NCBI GenBank assembly: GCA_946402315.1
Contig: CAMIWC010000003.1
Coordinates: forward strand, 12,879 to 76,878
Source: an uncultured Clostridium sp.
Lineage (GTDB): Bacteria > Bacillota_I > Bacilli_A > RF39 > UBA660
Direction: 5' to 3'
DNA length: 64,000 nt
Every line of letters starts with the position of its first letter. The first letter of the stretch is position 1. A program made the position numbers and the translations under genes. Under the pieces are notes generated by a model. It saw nothing but the letters and a program-made list of their open reading frames with translations, did not search any database and was not told where the DNA came from. Below are positions 36,753 to 43,807 of the stretch, in pieces.

Positions 36753-39700
36753 ATGAATAAAAAGAGAAATTTAATTATAATTATATTATTTATTCTTTTA
36801 ATTTTATTAATACCTATAATATTAATTACTATTATTAAGAATAATAATAATAAACTAAAAGAAAAAGAATTAGTAATAACTATTGAAAACGGAGAACTAC
36901 AACCTGAATTTAATCTAAATACATATAATTATGTGGTTTATACAAAGAATGACACCATTAAAATAATATGTAATATAGATATAGATGATTGTAATCAAGA
37001 TATTGATATAAATGAATTAGAAAGTTATAAAATTAAGTACAATAATAAGTATTATTATTTTGATTTTATTAAAGTAGAAGATGATATAGAGATTCCTACT
37101 ATAAAAATATTAGATGTAAAAGGTAATAGTACTAATTGGGTAAGAGAATTAACTTTAGAAGTACAAGTGTATAATCCTAATAATGAAGAATTATCTTATT
37201 CATTTGATAATGGTACTTCATGGTCTAATTCTAATAAAAAGAAGATTACTACTAATGGTATTTATACTATTTTAGTTAAAAGTACTAATATAGTAGATCA
37301 AACCGAAGTAGAAATAACTAAAATAGATAATACTGCTCCTATAGTTAGTATTAATCAAAAGAAAATTAATAATAATGAAATAACTTTAGAAGCAACTGCT
37401 CATGATGATTTATCAGGAATAGATACTTATACATGGAGTACTAAAGAAACTACTACAAGTATTAAAGTAACTAAGAATGGTAAATATACTCTTACTGTTA
37501 AGGATAAAGCTGGTAATGAAACTAAAAATGAAGTAAATGTAACTACAATTGGAACAAATACAAATCCAGAGACTACATTTAATGCTGTTTTTGATAGTAA
37601 TGATAATACTGGTAAACTAACTAATTTATCTTGTACTACTAAAACAGGTAGTTGTACTATAACTGCTCCTCAAATAACTAGAAATGGTTATATTGTCTTA
37701 GGATGGAGTACTAATCCTAATAGTAAAACTGCTGAATATAAAGTTAATGATAAGATTACTTTAAATAAGAATTCTATATTCTATGCTATTACGTATAAAA
37801 CTATTACTGTTACTTTTGATCGTAATGGTAATACTAGTCAAACTGATAATAATGTTACAACTACAAATATAATTACTAAGAAATGTAATATATATAATAA
37901 AGAAACAAAATGTACTATTAAAACTCCTAAAATAAATATGAATGGATTTACTATTTTAGGATATAGTACAGGAAGTACTACCTATAGTGATTACTGGAAA
38001 GAAAATACAGATGGATTTGTATATGATAATAAAAAGTACTATGCTCAAACATATAAAGAACCAAGAACAGTAAGTGTATTTTTCTATCGTAATGGTAATG
38101 AATCTTTAATAAATAGTGCCGGTAAAACTATAACTGATAAAGAATACAAAGAATCTTGTACTATTCCTAGTGCTAGAAATGGTTCTAATCAAAATGATTA
38201 TTGTTCAATTATAAGTCCAACTATTATAATGTCTGGAAATACTATATTAGGATATTCAAACTTTTCTAATGATACTACTATTACATGGGAACATAATACT
38301 AAAAAGAATATTAAAAATACTGGTTGGTATTATGCTCAAACATATAAAAAATATAATGCTACATTTGATAAGAATGGATCTACTAGTGTTGGAGCAACTG
38401 CCTTGAATTGTATATCATATAACAATAATAATGGATGTAATATTACAGCTCCTACTATTACAAGAAAAGGATTTACTATTAATGGATGGAGTACCAATAT
38501 GAATGCTTCAACTGGAGAGTATCTAGTAGGTAATATAATATTCTTAACAAAGAATAATAGTAAGTTCTATGCTATTACTAGTAAAGAAATAACTGTTACA
38601 TTTAATAAGAATGGAAATACTAATCAAATTGATGGTGGTAATACTTATACTAGTGATACTTATAATAAGAAATGTACTATTAGAAATATTGCAACATCTT
38701 GTAATATAACACCTCCGACAGCAAACACTAATAATTATGAATTCTTAGGATATACAACTGGATCTACTGTCTATAGTAATTTTTGGAAAACAGGAGCCAA
38801 ATCATTTACTCAAAATGCTACTTATTATGGACAAACTATTAAGACTGTAACTGTTACATTTGATAAGAATACTACATTTGATCATAATACTGTACCTAAA
38901 ACAAGCAGTGATTATCATTGGTCTAAAACTAATATAGCTGCTACTAAGTTAAGTTTCTATAATAGAACGTGCACAAGTAGAAATAATGTTGGATGTTATA
39001 TAGGTAAAGTACCAATTATTTATTCATCTGGAAACGAGGTTGTTGGTTGGTCATTTTCTTCAGATGGAGGAATAAGTTATATAGGTAAACTTCAATTCAA
39101 ACAAGATACTACTATTTATGCTAGAATCTATAACAGTCATAGTAAAGGAACATTTAATTGTTCTAATTGTAGTAATACTAATCCTAAAAAGATTGGTAAT
39201 ATGATTATTGAATATGATAATTCTATCAGTGGTTCTAAACAAAATAGTTATAATACTTATTTAGAGCATATGTATGCTAAAATGCCTCAAATGTTTAAAA
39301 CAACTGCTAAGATTAGAGTAGTATCAAGAGAATCATTTAATGATTGGTGGGGAGCTTATGGAGGTATTACAGGAGGATATTATGAATATCCAATAGTTGA
39401 TATTCCTGAATATGGTGAAAATCATTTTAGAGGTGCAATTGCTCACGAACTTGGCCATGCTTTAGATAGATATTATGGTGTTTTCTCTAGTAGTAGAAAA
39501 CGTATTAGTCAAGATCAAACATTAATAAATATGGCTGAGAAATGTAGAACCGATGTTAATGAATGTGGATATATTTGGGAACATGGAACTTCTGATAGTG
39601 AAATGAATGAATTTGTAGCTAATATGTTCCACGTTTATTTCTATAATATTGCTAATACAGAAGATCTATGGACACCATCAAATCCAGATAAGATGATTCT

Positions 39701-39761
39701 AAGTACTAAATTAAGAAATAAGATTATTAATTATTTAAATGAAGTGTCTGCATTTGAATAG
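36753..39761 (+). CDS. Large membrane-anchored extracellular protein: Ig-like domains, ~6 InlB B-repeat-like units, C-terminal HExxH metalloprotease
   Basis: N-terminal TM; repeats of T(V)TFDxNG...C...C.I..P.....G...LG(W/Y)S...YYA; AIAHELGH and downstream NEFVA. Confidence 0.8.
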   Translation: MNKKRNLIIIILFILLILLIPIILITIIKNNNNKLKEKELVITIENGELQPEFNLNTYNYVVYTKNDTIKIICNIDIDDCNQDIDINELESYKIKYNNKYYYFDFIKVEDDIEIPTIKILDVKGNSTNWVRELTLEVQVYNPNNEELSYSFDNGTSWSNSNKKKITTNGIYTILVKSTNIVDQTEVEITKIDNTAPIVSINQKKINNNEITLEATAHDDLSGIDTYTWSTKETTTSIKVTKNGKYTLTVKDKAGNETKNEVNVTTIGTNTNPETTFNAVFDSNDNTGKLTNLSCTTKTGSCTITAPQITRNGYIVLGWSTNPNSKTAEYKVNDKITLNKNSIFYAITYKTITVTFDRNGNTSQTDNNVTTTNIITKKCNIYNKETKCTIKTPKINMNGFTILGYSTGSTTYSDYWKENTDGFVYDNKKYYAQTYKEPRTVSVFFYRNGNESLINSAGKTITDKEYKESCTIPSARNGSNQNDYCSIISPTIIMSGNTILGYSNFSNDTTITWEHNTKKNIKNTGWYYAQTYKKYNATFDKNGSTSVGATALNCISYNNNNGCNITAPTITRKGFTINGWSTNMNASTGEYLVGNIIFLTKNNSKFYAITSKEITVTFNKNGNTNQIDGGNTYTSDTYNKKCTIRNIATSCNITPPTANTNNYEFLGYTTGSTVYSNFWKTGAKSFTQNATYYGQTIKTVTVTFDKNTTFDHNTVPKTSSDYHWSKTNIAATKLSFYNRTCTSRNNVGCYIGKVPIIYSSGNEVVGWSFSSDGGISYIGKLQFKQDTTIYARIYNSHSKGTFNCSNCSNTNPKKIGNMIIEYDNSISGSKQNSYNTYLEHMYAKMPQMFKTTAKIRVVSRESFNDWWGAYGGITGGYYEYPIVDIPEYGENHFRGAIAHELGHALDRYYGVFSSSRKRISQDQTLINMAEKCRTDVNECGYIWEHGTSDSEMNEFVANMFHVYFYNIANTEDLWTPSNPDKMILSTKLRNKIINYLNEVSAFE

Positions 39762-39769
39762 GAGAGATT

Positions 39770-39952
39770 ATGGGAATATTTAGTTTTCTATTTGAAGATA
39801 CTAACTTTCAAAAAGAAAAGAAAGAAAAAGACAATTTAGCCGGATTAGACAAATGGCAAAAAGAAGAAGTAAAGAAAGGAAACTATGATACATTTAACTT
39901 CGAAGAAGAAGAATTAGAAGATGATGATTATTACTTCGAAGATGATAAATAA
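39770..39952 (+). CDS. Small acidic hypothetical protein (60 aa)
   Basis: GGAGAG RBS, ATG; acidic C-terminus. Confidence 0.55.
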   Translation: MGIFSFLFEDTNFQKEKKEKDNLAGLDKWQKEEVKKGNYDTFNFEEEELEDDDYYFEDDK

Positions 39953-39962
39953 AAATTTGATA

Positions 39963-39991
39963 TTTACAAAATGTTAAAAACATGATATAAT
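39963..39991 (+). promoter_or_regulatory. SigA promoter for the riboswitch leader
   Basis: TTTACA-17 bp-TATAAT. Confidence 0.75.
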
Positions 39992-39999
39992 ATACACTC

Positions 40000-40115
40000 G
40001 TAATTGGGAGTAGTCCTTAAATGCAATAATGCGACAATTCGTTAGTGAAATCGCTATCCGTATTATTGGGGTGTATATCTGGACAAGACTTTTACTATAA
40101 AGGTCTTGTCTTTTT
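40000..40115 (+). ncRNA. yybP-ykoY (Mn2+) riboswitch with overlapping intrinsic terminator
   Basis: GUAAUUG-GGAGUAG ... stem CAAUAAUGCG/CGUAUUAUUG enclosing ACAAUUCG and hairpin UAGUG-AAAU-CGCUA ... CAAGA-CUUUUAC; terminator GACAAGAC...GUCUUGUC-UUUUU (40082-40115). Motif order matches the known family consensus. Confidence 0.8.
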
Positions 40116-40176
40116 AATTATATTTTTACTTTTTTGCAGGACCTTTATAAAAAAATCTATGAAGGGAATGATGAAA

Positions 40177-40608
40177 ATGAGAAAAGTAAAAGTATTTTTA
40201 GGAGGAACTTGTGCAAGTTCAACATGGAGAGAGGAATTAATTCCAATGTTAGATGATTCTAAAGTTGAAACATTTAACCCAGTAGTGCCTAACTGGACTC
40301 CAGAATGTCAAGCAGAGGAGGATATGCATAGAGAAACAGATGATATTTGTTTATATGTTATAACTCCAGAAGGAGAAGGATTCTATAGTTTCGTAGAAGT
40401 TACTGATGACAGTAATAAAAGACCAGAAAGAACTGTTCTATGTGTACTTATGGAAGCAAATGGAAAGATGTTCGAAGGTCATATAGCAAAATGTGTACTT
40501 AAAACTATGAAGTTAGTAGCTAAAAACGGTGCAACTGTAGTAGACAACCTAGAAGATCTAGCTCAACATTTAAATGATGCTCAACAAAAAATCAAGAGTA
40601 TTCAATAA
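40177..40608 (+). CDS. Nucleoside 2-deoxyribosyltransferase-like protein (Nuc_deoxyri_tr2-type)
   Basis: VFLGGTC...WREELI...FNPVVPNWT...LYVITP...GFYSFVEV. The ORF-track start at 40045 lies inside the riboswitch. Confidence 0.75.
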   Translation: MRKVKVFLGGTCASSTWREELIPMLDDSKVETFNPVVPNWTPECQAEEDMHRETDDICLYVITPEGEGFYSFVEVTDDSNKRPERTVLCVLMEANGKMFEGHIAKCVLKTMKLVAKNGATVVDNLEDLAQHLNDAQQKIKSIQ

Positions 40609-40672
40609 TAGAAAAGAGATTAGTTCATTGAACTAGTCTCTTTTTATATGTTAGAATAATATTGGTGAAGAT

Positions 40673-41296: not shown

Positions 41297-41341
41297 GTAT
41301 TTACAATTAATACATCTTATGATAAATTGATTTCAATTGAA

Positions 41342-41535
41342 TGTTGATTAATACTTAGTAATTTAATACTTATTTTTTAGAGAGTTCGTGGTTGGTGTAA
41401 ATGAATAAATACTATTAAATGAAATACATATTAAGAATTCAATCGGTAGTAACGTTATAGCTTTGAGGTAATAATAATTACAAATTAAGGTGGTACCACG
41501 AATATTTCGTCCTTATGACAAGTATTTGTGTTTTT
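41342..41535 (+). promoter_or_regulatory. T-box leader, tyrosine specifier
   Basis: Stem I with AGAGAG/GGTTGGTG tip and GAAA-UAC-A specifier (UAC at 41425-41427); T-box AAGGTGGTACCACG (41487-41500) pairing with TTCGTCCTT; promoter TTTACA-17-TAAATT at 41300-41328. Confidence 0.9.
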
Positions 41536-41552
41536 TAATTTTAGGAGTTATT

Positions 41553-42569
41553 ATGGGATTAATTTTTTCTAAAAATTTACAAGGATTATTGGAGAGAGAA
41601 AATGTTTCTCTGTCTAAATCAGGAATCGATACAACTAATATAGATTTATCTTCAATAAGAAGTAGTGATGAATTAATATCTAGATTAGTTAGTACTAATA
41701 GCTTATTTGCTAACGAAGAAAGAGATAAAAAATCTATAGAAAGATATCTAGAATTAAGAAATATGGATATTTTATCAATGCTTTATTACTTTGAAGGTCC
41801 TGGAGACAATATGGATTTAGCAAAAGCATCTAGATATGATGGTGGTGCAGTAATAAGTGGTGAAGAACATTTTACCCAAGAACAATTACTATCGCGTGGT
41901 AAATATGATTATCGTATTACTATGAGAGGATCAAATAAAATTAGTACTGAAGAAGCTCTAGCATATGTTGATGCTTTAATAAGAGAAGCTAATAATAGAA
42001 AATTAAATATTAGAATGAAAGATCAATGGACTCATGATGCAGTTATTTTATATGTAAATCAAGAAGAATTGCTTTCAACTGTAAGAATGTTAGAAGATTT
42101 AAGAAATGATACTAGTTATGGAACTCTTGTTCAAGATGCAATAAAACACTTTGGACCAATAATGCCTTTTGGAGCAACTATAAGTAAAGATTCATATTAT
42201 AGTATAGGTATGGCTCATTCTGAAGGAGAATTCGGAAAAGTATCTTCTCAACTTAGAGGTTCTTATGGTGGTAATTTTGGTAATACCTTTGGAGGTTATA
42301 TTGAAGATACTTGTTTAGCACCAACATATGATAGTTTATTAGCTAAGTATAATGGTGATGCTAGCAAAATAACAGTAGATGAAATGTATAATGGCGCTGT
42401 TAATAGACATAAGATGTATATGTTAGGTAATACTAATGAAAATATACCTTTATGGATGAATAGAAGAAATTACACTGATTATAAAAATATGAAAAGAAAA
42501 AGCAATGAAGAAATGAATGGATTTAGAAGAGCAACAGACTTTGATCTTGAATCTTCTGTCCATAAATAG
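41553..42569 (+). CDS. Orphan protein between the T-box and tyrS (possible HopA1/phosphothreonine-lyase-like fold)
   Basis: AGGAG RBS then ATG 41553; the track start at 41490 is inside the T-box. Fold guess is from motif spacing only. Confidence 0.65.
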   Translation: MGLIFSKNLQGLLERENVSLSKSGIDTTNIDLSSIRSSDELISRLVSTNSLFANEERDKKSIERYLELRNMDILSMLYYFEGPGDNMDLAKASRYDGGAVISGEEHFTQEQLLSRGKYDYRITMRGSNKISTEEALAYVDALIREANNRKLNIRMKDQWTHDAVILYVNQEELLSTVRMLEDLRNDTSYGTLVQDAIKHFGPIMPFGATISKDSYYSIGMAHSEGEFGKVSSQLRGSYGGNFGNTFGGYIEDTCLAPTYDSLLAKYNGDASKITVDEMYNGAVNRHKMYMLGNTNENIPLWMNRRNYTDYKNMKRKSNEEMNGFRRATDFDLESSVHK

Positions 42570-42580
42570 GAGGTATAAAT

Positions 42581-43807
42581 ATGACTTTATATGAAGAATT
42601 AGTATGGAGAGGACTAATCCAAGAAATAAGTAGTCCTGATTTAATTGAAAGATTGAACAATGGTGGTATGACATTTTATATAGGAACTGATCCTACCGCA
42701 GACTCTATGCATATAGGACATTATTCTTCATTTTTAATATCAAAGAGACTAGCTAAAGCAGGACATAGACCACTATTATTAGTTGGAGGAGCAACTGGAT
42801 TAATTGGGGACCCTAAACCTACTGCTGAAAGACCTATAATAAGTAAGGAAGAAGTAGAAAAAAATATAAAAGGCCTTACTAAACAAGCTAAAGAGATATT
42901 TGGATTTGAAGTAGTAAATAACTGGGATTGGACTAAAGATGTAAATATATGTGATTTCTTAAGAGATTATGGTAAGTATTTTAATATTAATTATATGCTT
43001 GCAAAGGACCATGTTAAATCTAGAATGGATGTAGGTATTACCTATGCAGAATTCTCTTATATGTTACTTCAAGCAATGGACTTCTATTATTTATATAAGG
43101 AATATAATTGTGAACTTCAAGTAGCTGGATCAGATCAATGGGGAAATATTACTTCTGGTATCGAATTAATCCGTAAGAAATTAGATAAAGAAGCATATGG
43201 TATGGTAATGCCACTAGTAACTGATTCTATGGGTGTTAAATTTGGTAAAACTGAAGGTAATGCATTATGGTTAGATGAAGAGAAAACATCGTCATATGAG
43301 TTATATCAATACTTAATTAACCTAGAAGATTCTATGATTATTGATTACTTAAAGAAATTGACTTTCTTATCTAAAGAAGAAATAGAAGGTATTGAAAGAG
43401 AACATCTAAAGAATCCAGAAATGAGACTTGCTCATAAAGCTTTAGCTAAAGAAATTATTACTGATCTACATGGAGAAGAAAGTTATAAAGAAGCTTTAAG
43501 AATATCAGAACAATTATTTAATGGTGATATAAAGAACTTTACTGAAAAAGAAATTGAATCTGCTTTTAGAGGATTAGAACCATTTAAAATAAATGAAGAT
43601 TCTAATATCTTAGATTTCTTAGTAAATAATGGTATTTGTTCTAGTAAAAGAGAAGCTAGAGAATTTGTTAGTGCTGGATCTATTACTTTAAATGGAGAAA
43701 AGATTACTGATTTAGAATATGTAGTAACTAAAGATTCTTGTTTACATAACAAGTACTTAATTGTAAGAAGAGGTAAAAAGAAATATTCTATAGGTATATA
43801 TGAATAA
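42581..43807 (+). CDS. tyrS: Tyrosine--tRNA ligase
   Basis: YIGTDPTADSMHIGH (HIGH), QVAGSDQWGNI, KFGKT (KMSKS equivalent), C-terminal S4 domain. Confidence 0.98.
   Translation: MTLYEELVWRGLIQEISSPDLIERLNNGGMTFYIGTDPTADSMHIGHYSSFLISKRLAKAGHRPLLLVGGATGLIGDPKPTAERPIISKEEVEKNIKGLTKQAKEIFGFEVVNNWDWTKDVNICDFLRDYGKYFNINYMLAKDHVKSRMDVGITYAEFSYMLLQAMDFYYLYKEYNCELQVAGSDQWGNITSGIELIRKKLDKEAYGMVMPLVTDSMGVKFGKTEGNALWLDEEKTSSYELYQYLINLEDSMIIDYLKKLTFLSKEEIEGIEREHLKNPEMRLAHKALAKEIITDLHGEESYKEALRISEQLFNGDIKNFTEKEIESAFRGLEPFKINEDSNILDFLVNNGICSSKREAREFVSAGSITLNGEKITDLEYVVTKDSCLHNKYLIVRRGKKKYSIGIYE

Follow-up and report, generated by a model that had tools for sequence, protein, structure and literature searches.

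A probable yybP-ykoY riboswitch of divergent sequence ahead of a nucleoside deoxyribosyltransferase-like gene in rumen and gut bacteria

Mn2+ riboswitches, the yybP-ykoY family, are understood as fail-safe switches for metal exporters. The family member alx of E. coli (PDB 9JGM) is built around a three-way junction in which a capping loop, L2, replaces helix P2, and it combines a conserved L1 with a variable L3 that holds one absolutely conserved adenosine; its Mn2+ sensitivity is tuned by pH, with L2 as the pH-sensitive element (PMC12934788). The invariant L3 adenosine contacts Mn2+ through N7 (PMC12934788; PMC11672702), and a family member from S. pneumoniae responds to Ca2+ too (PMC11672702). 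Here we describe a leader RNA from an uncultured Clostridium sp., encoded in a stretch of 64,000 nucleotides (nt) that was analysed as a whole and is called the window below (assembly GCA_946402315.1, contig CAMIWC010000003.1, positions 12,879-76,878 of the forward strand; all further positions are those of the window). The leader, which forms the 5' untranslated region (UTR) at about 39997-40176, is likely to belong to the yybP-ykoY (Mn2+) riboswitch family, as a representative with a three-way junction, and it stands directly ahead of a gene for a soluble protein resembling nucleoside deoxyribosyltransferases (NDTs), its cargo gene.

The window leader and alx are alike in having two helical legs, a three-way junction, L2 for P2, a conserved L1 and a variable L3 with a single constant adenosine, and alx is an ON switch, as the window leader would be by the mechanism proposed below. 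They differ in control and context: alx is proteobacterial and acts on the translation of a Mn2+ exporter of the TerC type, whereas the window leader combines an intrinsic terminator with a sequestor of the Shine-Dalgarno (SD) region, belongs to a low-GC, small-genome member of the Bacilli and has a soluble NDT/TIR-like cargo. With the four-way-junction members (L. lactis yoaB, X. oryzae, E. coli mntP, B. subtilis yybP and ykoY/meeY; Rfam RF00080) the leader shares the L1 letters GGGAGUAG ... C[A/G]AGAC and a P3.1 of about 10 base pairs (bp) around a 6-7-nt L3 starting [A/U]CA, and like those from Firmicutes it has a terminator overlapping the 3' strand of P1. Unlike them, it lacks the P2 hairpin, has a P4 cut to 4 bp, is negative with the RF00080 model and precedes none of their cargo types (P-type ATPase, MntP, TerC, GDT1, Na_Ca_ex). 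The proposed aptamer has the following parts:

40000-40095, plus strand: whole aptamer, three-way-junction yybP-ykoY type
40000-40006 with 40089-40095, plus strand: P1.1, GUAAUUG pairing with CUUUUAC
40007-40012 with 40085-40088, plus strand: L1
40013-40016 with 40081-40084, plus strand: P1.2
40017-40023, plus strand: L2, a 7-nt capping loop (UUAAAUG) between P1.2 and P3.1, in place of P2
40024-40033 with 40059-40068, plus strand: P3.1, 10 bp, enclosing L3 and an inner hairpin
40034-40040, plus strand: L3, ACAAUUC
40036, plus strand: L3 adenosine, by alignment the counterpart of the invariant Mn2+-contacting adenosine
40041-40058, plus strand: P3.2 hairpin
40069-40080, plus strand: P4, a mini-helix of 4 bp

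The leader folds more stably than shuffled sequences (z = -4.05; 0 of 200 shuffles fold as well). In an alignment of 20 non-identical homologous leaders, 92.8% of the cells of the aptamer helices can pair, compared with 33-45% in controls with slid partners, and 15 aptamer pairs show compensatory change, including 9 of the 10 in P3.1 and all 4 in P4; these values were reached by 0 of 500 shuffles. The unpaired L1 behaves differently. Its 5' strand, GGGAGUAG at 40006-40013, and its 3' strand, C(A/G)AGAC at 40084-40089 (within GGACAAGAC at 40081-40089), are invariant in all 20 leaders. An invariant unpaired L1 surrounded by covarying helices is the signature of a tertiary contact or ligand site and not of a plain hairpin. 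L2 is also well conserved among these leaders. L3 varies and begins [A/U]-C-A in 19 of the 20; A40036 sits at the adenosine of this motif, and by alignment it would correspond to the invariant L3 adenosine (A41 in L. lactis, A37 in alx).

An earlier note on this DNA, made from the letters alone, had placed here a yybP-ykoY (Mn2+-type) ON riboswitch with a promoter, the letters GGAGUAG, a 10-bp stem, CAAGA, P1 and an overlapping terminator, and each of these parts is present where it was said to be. The note proposed the Rfam model as a check and took a lack of significant score as evidence against the assignment, and by RF00080 alone the assignment fails: Rfam 15 gave no match to this model at the gathering threshold (45 bits) in the window, and none at E<=10 in 39900-40250 (351 nt), nor did any other riboswitch family match at the leader. 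Apart from a T-box at 41335-41517, Rfam found nothing in the window at its gathering threshold. We therefore turned to models of other origin. A search pattern taken from the leader (GGGAGTAGTCC, 40-70 nt, GGRCRAGAC) was run on metagenomes and viral contigs and returned three groups: high-GC elements ahead of GDT1/UPF0016 and Na_Ca_ex-type genes, mid-GC four-way-junction elements ahead of TerC, and low-GC elements resembling the window. On viral contigs the scan gave TerC-linked four-way-junction elements and chance matches in coding sequence, and no NDT-linked copy. A covariance model of 38 transporter-linked elements (GDT1/antiporter-linked; model R1) found the leader as its sole significant match in the window, at 24.2 bits. 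Since R1 is partly circular, its training pattern having come from the window, a second model, R2, was built, with nothing from the window, from 15 elements found independently by RF00080 (E 1e-7 to 1e-4) in class genomes other than this one, where they precede P-type ATPases, MntP and Na_Ca_ex. R2 matched 39998-40098 over its full length with 33.8 bits (E 2.3e-6), the top match on both strands of the 64 kb, with the runner-up at 17.7 bits. In its alignment L1, the 10-bp P3.1, L3 and CAAGAC are in register with the canonical consensus, and P2 alone is deleted. Recognition also runs in reverse, as R3, the model of the present leader family, recovers the RF00080 loci G324:C14, G125:C1, G087:C8 and G100:C4. 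The leader is thus homologous as RNA to the yybP-ykoY elements, a genuine but divergent riboswitch of that family, which bears out the assignment made in the earlier note.

The failure of RF00080 reflects on the model more than on the RNA. RF00080 gave no match in the window's own genome and 60 relatives, and in 300 genomes of the class it gave only sub-threshold matches, none reaching 45 bits. The release-15 model, of 177 positions, treats GGGGAGUAG and the 3' CAAGAC strand (P1/L1) as unpaired, and it scores a TerC-linked four-way-junction element at 20.9 bits and a GDT1-linked element at 19.6 bits (P3/L3 only). Because no class genome exceeds the cut-off and evident transporter-linked relatives reach only about 20 bits, we discount the non-match; the model is insensitive and a poor yardstick here. 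More generally, RF00080 undercounts the riboswitch class, missing the present family and many GDT1-, TerC- and ATPase-linked members, so that any cargo survey of Mn riboswitches that relies on it is biased to a narrow subset.

Downstream of the aptamer lie segments that can pair in alternative ways:

40081-40116, plus strand: intrinsic terminator, with segment A (40081-40094), a 3-nt loop and segment B (40098-40111) forming 14 bp, followed by a U run
40137-40149, plus strand: segment C (CAGGACCUUUAUA), pairing either with segment B (anti-sequestor, 13 bp) or with the SD region (sequestor)
40158-40167, plus strand: SD region, GAAGGGA at 40161-40167, of which 40158-40165 (UAUGAAGG) is occluded by segment C while the terminator arms are paired

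Segment A is at once the 5' arm of the terminator and the 3' strand of P1.2/L1/P1.1, and because both use it, terminator and P1 are mutually exclusive. The region yielded this one terminator-like site, against an expectation of 0.2. All three downstream pairings are kept among the homologs. In the 20 leaders 98.6% of cells pair in A:B, with 1 compensatory pair. For B:C, 97.2% of cells pair, with 3 compensatory pairs and a level reached by 0 of 500 shuffles. The three segments change together in L014 and L018, to GACGAGAC / GUCUCG / CGAGAC. The sequestor part of segment C, CCUUUAUA at 40142-40149, pairs with the SD region, and this pairing appears in the fold of 19 of 19 sequences and co-varies as CCUUCAU/AUGAAGG in L013 and CCUUUAU/AUAAAGG in L012. 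In the unconstrained minimum-energy folds of 11 complete UTRs, the terminator forms and the SD is paired in 11 of 11. When P1 is forced, at a cost of 3-15 kcal/mol, all 11 flip to B:C with the SD largely free.

These alternative pairings suggest a relay of four helices: P1, terminator, anti-sequestor and SD sequestor. Without ligand, segment A would pair with B to form the intrinsic terminator, and transcripts escaping termination would retain A:B and leave segment C to pair with the Shine-Dalgarno. A ligand, most likely Mn2+, would bind between L1 and L3, where A40036 would take the place of the invariant adenosine. Docking of the two helical legs would then hold P1, and this ligand-dependent docking would have to pay the cost of 3-15 kcal/mol. 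With P1 held, segment A would be unavailable, the terminator could not form, and the freed segment B would pair with C and expose the ribosome-binding site. The outcome would be an ON switch that is locked twice, on transcription and, for back-up, on translation. The ON direction is one that we infer.

The leader and the open reading frame (ORF) behind it form a simple transcription unit:

39963-39991, plus strand: sigma-70-type promoter, -35 TTTACA (39963-39968), 17-nt spacer and TG-extended -10 TATAAT (39986-39991)
40177-40608, plus strand: cargo gene, Nuc_deoxyri_tr2-like, 143 amino acids (MRKVKVFLGG...), homolog-supported ATG at 40177 and stop at 40606-40608
40611-40650, plus strand: terminator of the cargo gene, a 16-bp hairpin (40611-40645) and U run, z = -5.0

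The promoter agrees with the consensus at 11 of 12 positions and ranks first among the promoter-like sites of the region; equivalent promoters (TTGACA...TATAAT) precede the homologous leaders. Transcription would start at about 39996-39999, 1-4 nt upstream of P1. As the cargo gene has its own terminator, the unit is monocistronic. In gut metatranscriptomes from sheep and bovine hosts, the X1 contigs cover 40015-40574, running from the leader through the terminator and into the ORF, and a further RNA contig, X9, spans 40015-40167; neither flank of the unit is covered by any such contig. The leader and ORF thus appear to be transcribed as one unit. The contigs are unstranded, assembled and of low depth, and within these limits their cover is consistent with, and supports, a monocistronic mRNA with a riboswitch 5' UTR that is at least partly in the read-through state. 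The sheep-gut X1 differs from the window by G40136A and by an A run next to segment C that is 1 nt shorter (around 40136 and 40149); both are differences between strains, and B:C and C:SD can still pair as before.

These RNA contigs also bear on the possibility that the leader is chiefly a trans-acting small RNA of about 120 nt, with promoter and terminator, and that the ORF is expressed from a promoter of its own. The strong terminator, a default fold in the terminated form and the confinement of X9 to 40015-40167 would suit such an RNA. We nevertheless regard it as very improbable, as 40117-40176 holds no promoter-like site, segment C links the terminator arm to the SD and covaries with it, the X1 contigs continue from the leader through the ORF, and leader and gene move jointly into unrelated neighbourhoods, as shown below.

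The cargo protein matches Pfam PF15891 (Nuc_deoxyri_tr2) with E 7.7e-10 and 39.5 bits, against a cut-off of 30 bits. Its AlphaFold2 model (pLDDT 91.9) is most similar to 4mcj (BDI_0649), a 'putative nucleoside deoxyribosyltransferase' (TM 0.60-0.64), and then to bacterial TIR domains and true NDTs, and it has the flavodoxin-like fold common to the NDT/TIR-like superfamily. Sequence identity to any solved structure is at most 19%, and searches of PDB sequences with the protein and its profile returned nothing significant. Pfam and the model together confirm a protein predicted to be soluble and to have an NDT/TIR-like flavodoxin fold, and not part of a transporter. The earlier note had read the ORF as Nuc_deoxyri_tr2-like and had placed a terminator of its own at about 40612-40643; both hold, and the ORF did not prove to be a transporter-associated domain, which the note had named as evidence against its reading. 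A conserved cluster, Y70-S71...E74...D77-D78, is at most suggestive of activity on N-glycosidic bonds. The protein is presumably an enzyme that breaks or transfers such bonds, with a nucleoside, a nucleotide or an NAD-like compound as its substrate. The protein has 810 close homologs, and its homologs form 1613 clusters at 50% identity. The window protein is free-standing, whereas in the distant homologs P0154, P0191, P0241, P0246 and P0265 the Nuc_deoxyri_tr2-like domain is the N-terminal head of proteins of 1000-1600 amino acids that carry three TIR domains and WD40 or LRR repeats, an architecture typical of conflict or immunity proteins. This company places the domain among nucleotide- and NAD-processing domains. 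With PADLOC, no defence-system model matched the cargo protein of the window.

Leader and cargo gene are found together in about 20 rumen and gut bacteria. The cargo gene lies downstream of 19 of the 20 leaders; the other, L080, precedes a different ORF, which is incomplete and too short for Pfam. Seen from the protein, the leader is nearly always present with cargo homologs of at least 65% identity and missing with those of at most 58%. The neighbourhoods are unrelated except in a same-genus genome: the adjoining HAD hydrolase is not conserved with the pair, and beyond that genome we found no conserved gene neighbour, hence no operon partner. Because the flanks are unrelated and the gene is present in only 1 of 60 relatives, leader and gene behave as a cassette. 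The literature searched holds no paper that combines 'yybP-ykoY' with 'deoxyribosyltransferase', and a Nuc_deoxyri_tr2 subfamily under riboswitch control is unreported there. The earlier note had called the association unusual and suggested a survey of downstream genes in the lineage; that judgement stands, with NDT-like, orphan and SPFH cargo in the bacterial family of the window and transporters elsewhere in the class.

The same genome carries a second copy of the riboswitch (L196; G000 contig C9:2851-2958, minus strand), found by R3 with 48.3 bits and E 2e-10. It has a P2 hairpin, and so a four-way junction, and its own terminator, and it stands ahead of a 192-amino-acid orphan without Pfam match. 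BLAST of the leader against its own genome returned the leader itself and a weak match to the terminator part of this second copy. Two relatives carry several copies: G382 has six (L189, L195, L198, L199, L200, L201) and G351 two (L187, L197), and the callable ORFs downstream encode orphans, which are lipoprotein-like, small and membrane-bound, or hypothetical. It looks as if a small-genome lineage had expanded a regulon under this riboswitch. For L190, a same-genus copy, the orphan cargo ('KFYFASPVF') was considered as NDT-like and rejected (hhalign probability 0.3).

Several observations weigh against an Mn2+ riboswitch of the yybP-ykoY family. Besides the RF00080 result, one aligned leader, L019, has no adenosine at the L3 position, P1.1 of the window holds a U-U mismatch, and some members have a weak C:SD hairpin (-2.4 to -9 kcal/mol). 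The RNA evidence consists of low-depth assembled contigs, to which DNA carry-over may have contributed. Finally, the window cargo is not a metal transporter, and in the bacterial family of the window the assignable cargo is NDT-like, an orphan without Pfam match or an SPFH protein, with no transporters. In other riboswitch classes a shift of cargo has signalled a changed ligand.

This last point leads to the alternative that survives best, namely that the RNAs are of yybP-ykoY descent and the copies of this lineage sense another cation (Ca2+, Fe2+, Co2+, Cd2+), mainly pH, to which alx responds in part, or a metal-nucleotide complex. The cargo speaks for it: NDT-like proteins, lipoprotein-like and small membrane orphans and SPFH here, compared with E1-E2 (P-type) ATPase, MntP, Na_Ca_ex, CitMHS and Na/Pi cotransporter in the rest of the class, where P2-less versions are included. 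So do the conservation of L2, which is pH-sensitive in alx (PMC12934788), and the Ca2+ response of the S. pneumoniae member (PMC11672702). The binding core, however, gives no hint of a changed ligand. L1 is canonical letter for letter, and identical L3 sequences precede transporters and NDT-like or orphan genes, with no systematic base change between the cargo groups: the core CGUCAACACG is common to L009/L139 (NDT cargo) and L213/L215 (P-type ATPase), and CGUCAAGACG to L187/L189 (orphan cargo) and L216 (ATPase). Transporter cargo is a habit of the yybP-ykoY family and not a defining feature; E1-E2 ATPase, MntP, Na_Ca_ex, TerC and GDT1 are all found as cargo of class relatives. By tblastn in the window's genome (74% complete) we found no TerC, MntP or GDT1; its sole matches were a Na_Ca_ex-like gene and a distant P-type ATPase, and the riboswitch precedes neither of them. 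On balance a changed ligand appears rather unlikely, and Mn2+ is probably still the ligand.

That the leader is a structured attenuator without direct ligand (protein-dependent, small-RNA-dependent or constitutive), its yybP-ykoY likeness convergent or due to chance, could appeal to the missing Rfam match and to AT-rich sequence, which favours spurious hairpins, yet it is scarcely credible given that the leader is the sole significant window match of two models built without this family (R1, R2), that recognition is reciprocal through R3, and that L1 is invariant and unpaired amid covarying helices.

The surroundings of the unit hold further features. Immediately upstream, adjoining the riboswitch promoter, a 60-amino-acid ORF (39770-39952) without Pfam match has a very acidic C-terminus (EEEELEDDDYYFEDDK) and is kept at the same place in the same-genus genome G007 with 78% identity. 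It follows an Asn/Thr-rich protein of 1002 amino acids (36753-39761), which has a signal anchor at its N-terminus, Listeria-Bacteroides repeats (PF09479) and, C-terminally, a HELGH motif like that of zinc proteases, and which is probably a protease or adhesin of the cell surface. Downstream, in the region 41335-43807, the T-box leader (41335-41517, 94.6 bits) is followed by an orphan ORF of about 338-359 amino acids without Pfam match (41490/41553-42569) and a tyrosyl-tRNA synthetase-like gene (42581-43807).

If the leader is an Mn2+ riboswitch and acts as proposed, the protein would be made only when Mn2+ is plentiful; our guess is that it either needs Mn2+ or relieves Mn2+ stress on the nucleotide pool, and in this sense the cargo may be linked to metal stress. 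The leader itself offers a compact natural case in which one aptamer and four mutually exclusive helices would lock both transcription and translation. A broader idea, which we put forward tentatively and with more doubt than confidence, is that in this small-genome (~1 Mb) family of rumen and gut Bacilli the Mn2+ riboswitch left metal export and became a general-purpose sensor of a lineage-specific orphan regulon (soluble, lipoprotein-like and membrane proteins, in up to six copies per genome), with the mobile pair of riboswitch and NDT/TIR-like enzyme as its most widespread unit. On this idea, the sensing of Mn2+, or of Mn2+ and pH, would be coupled to the chemistry of nucleotides or NAD+, and the coupling would be either a new branch of the response to Mn stress or the work of an aptamer with a quietly altered ligand. 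About 20 independent examples with a soluble NDT/TIR-like enzyme, and a bacterial family that uses the switch only for orphans, would point to an undescribed part of the manganese response or of the signalling range of the riboswitch, and they would give a first physiological clue for the uncharacterised PF15891 subfamily.

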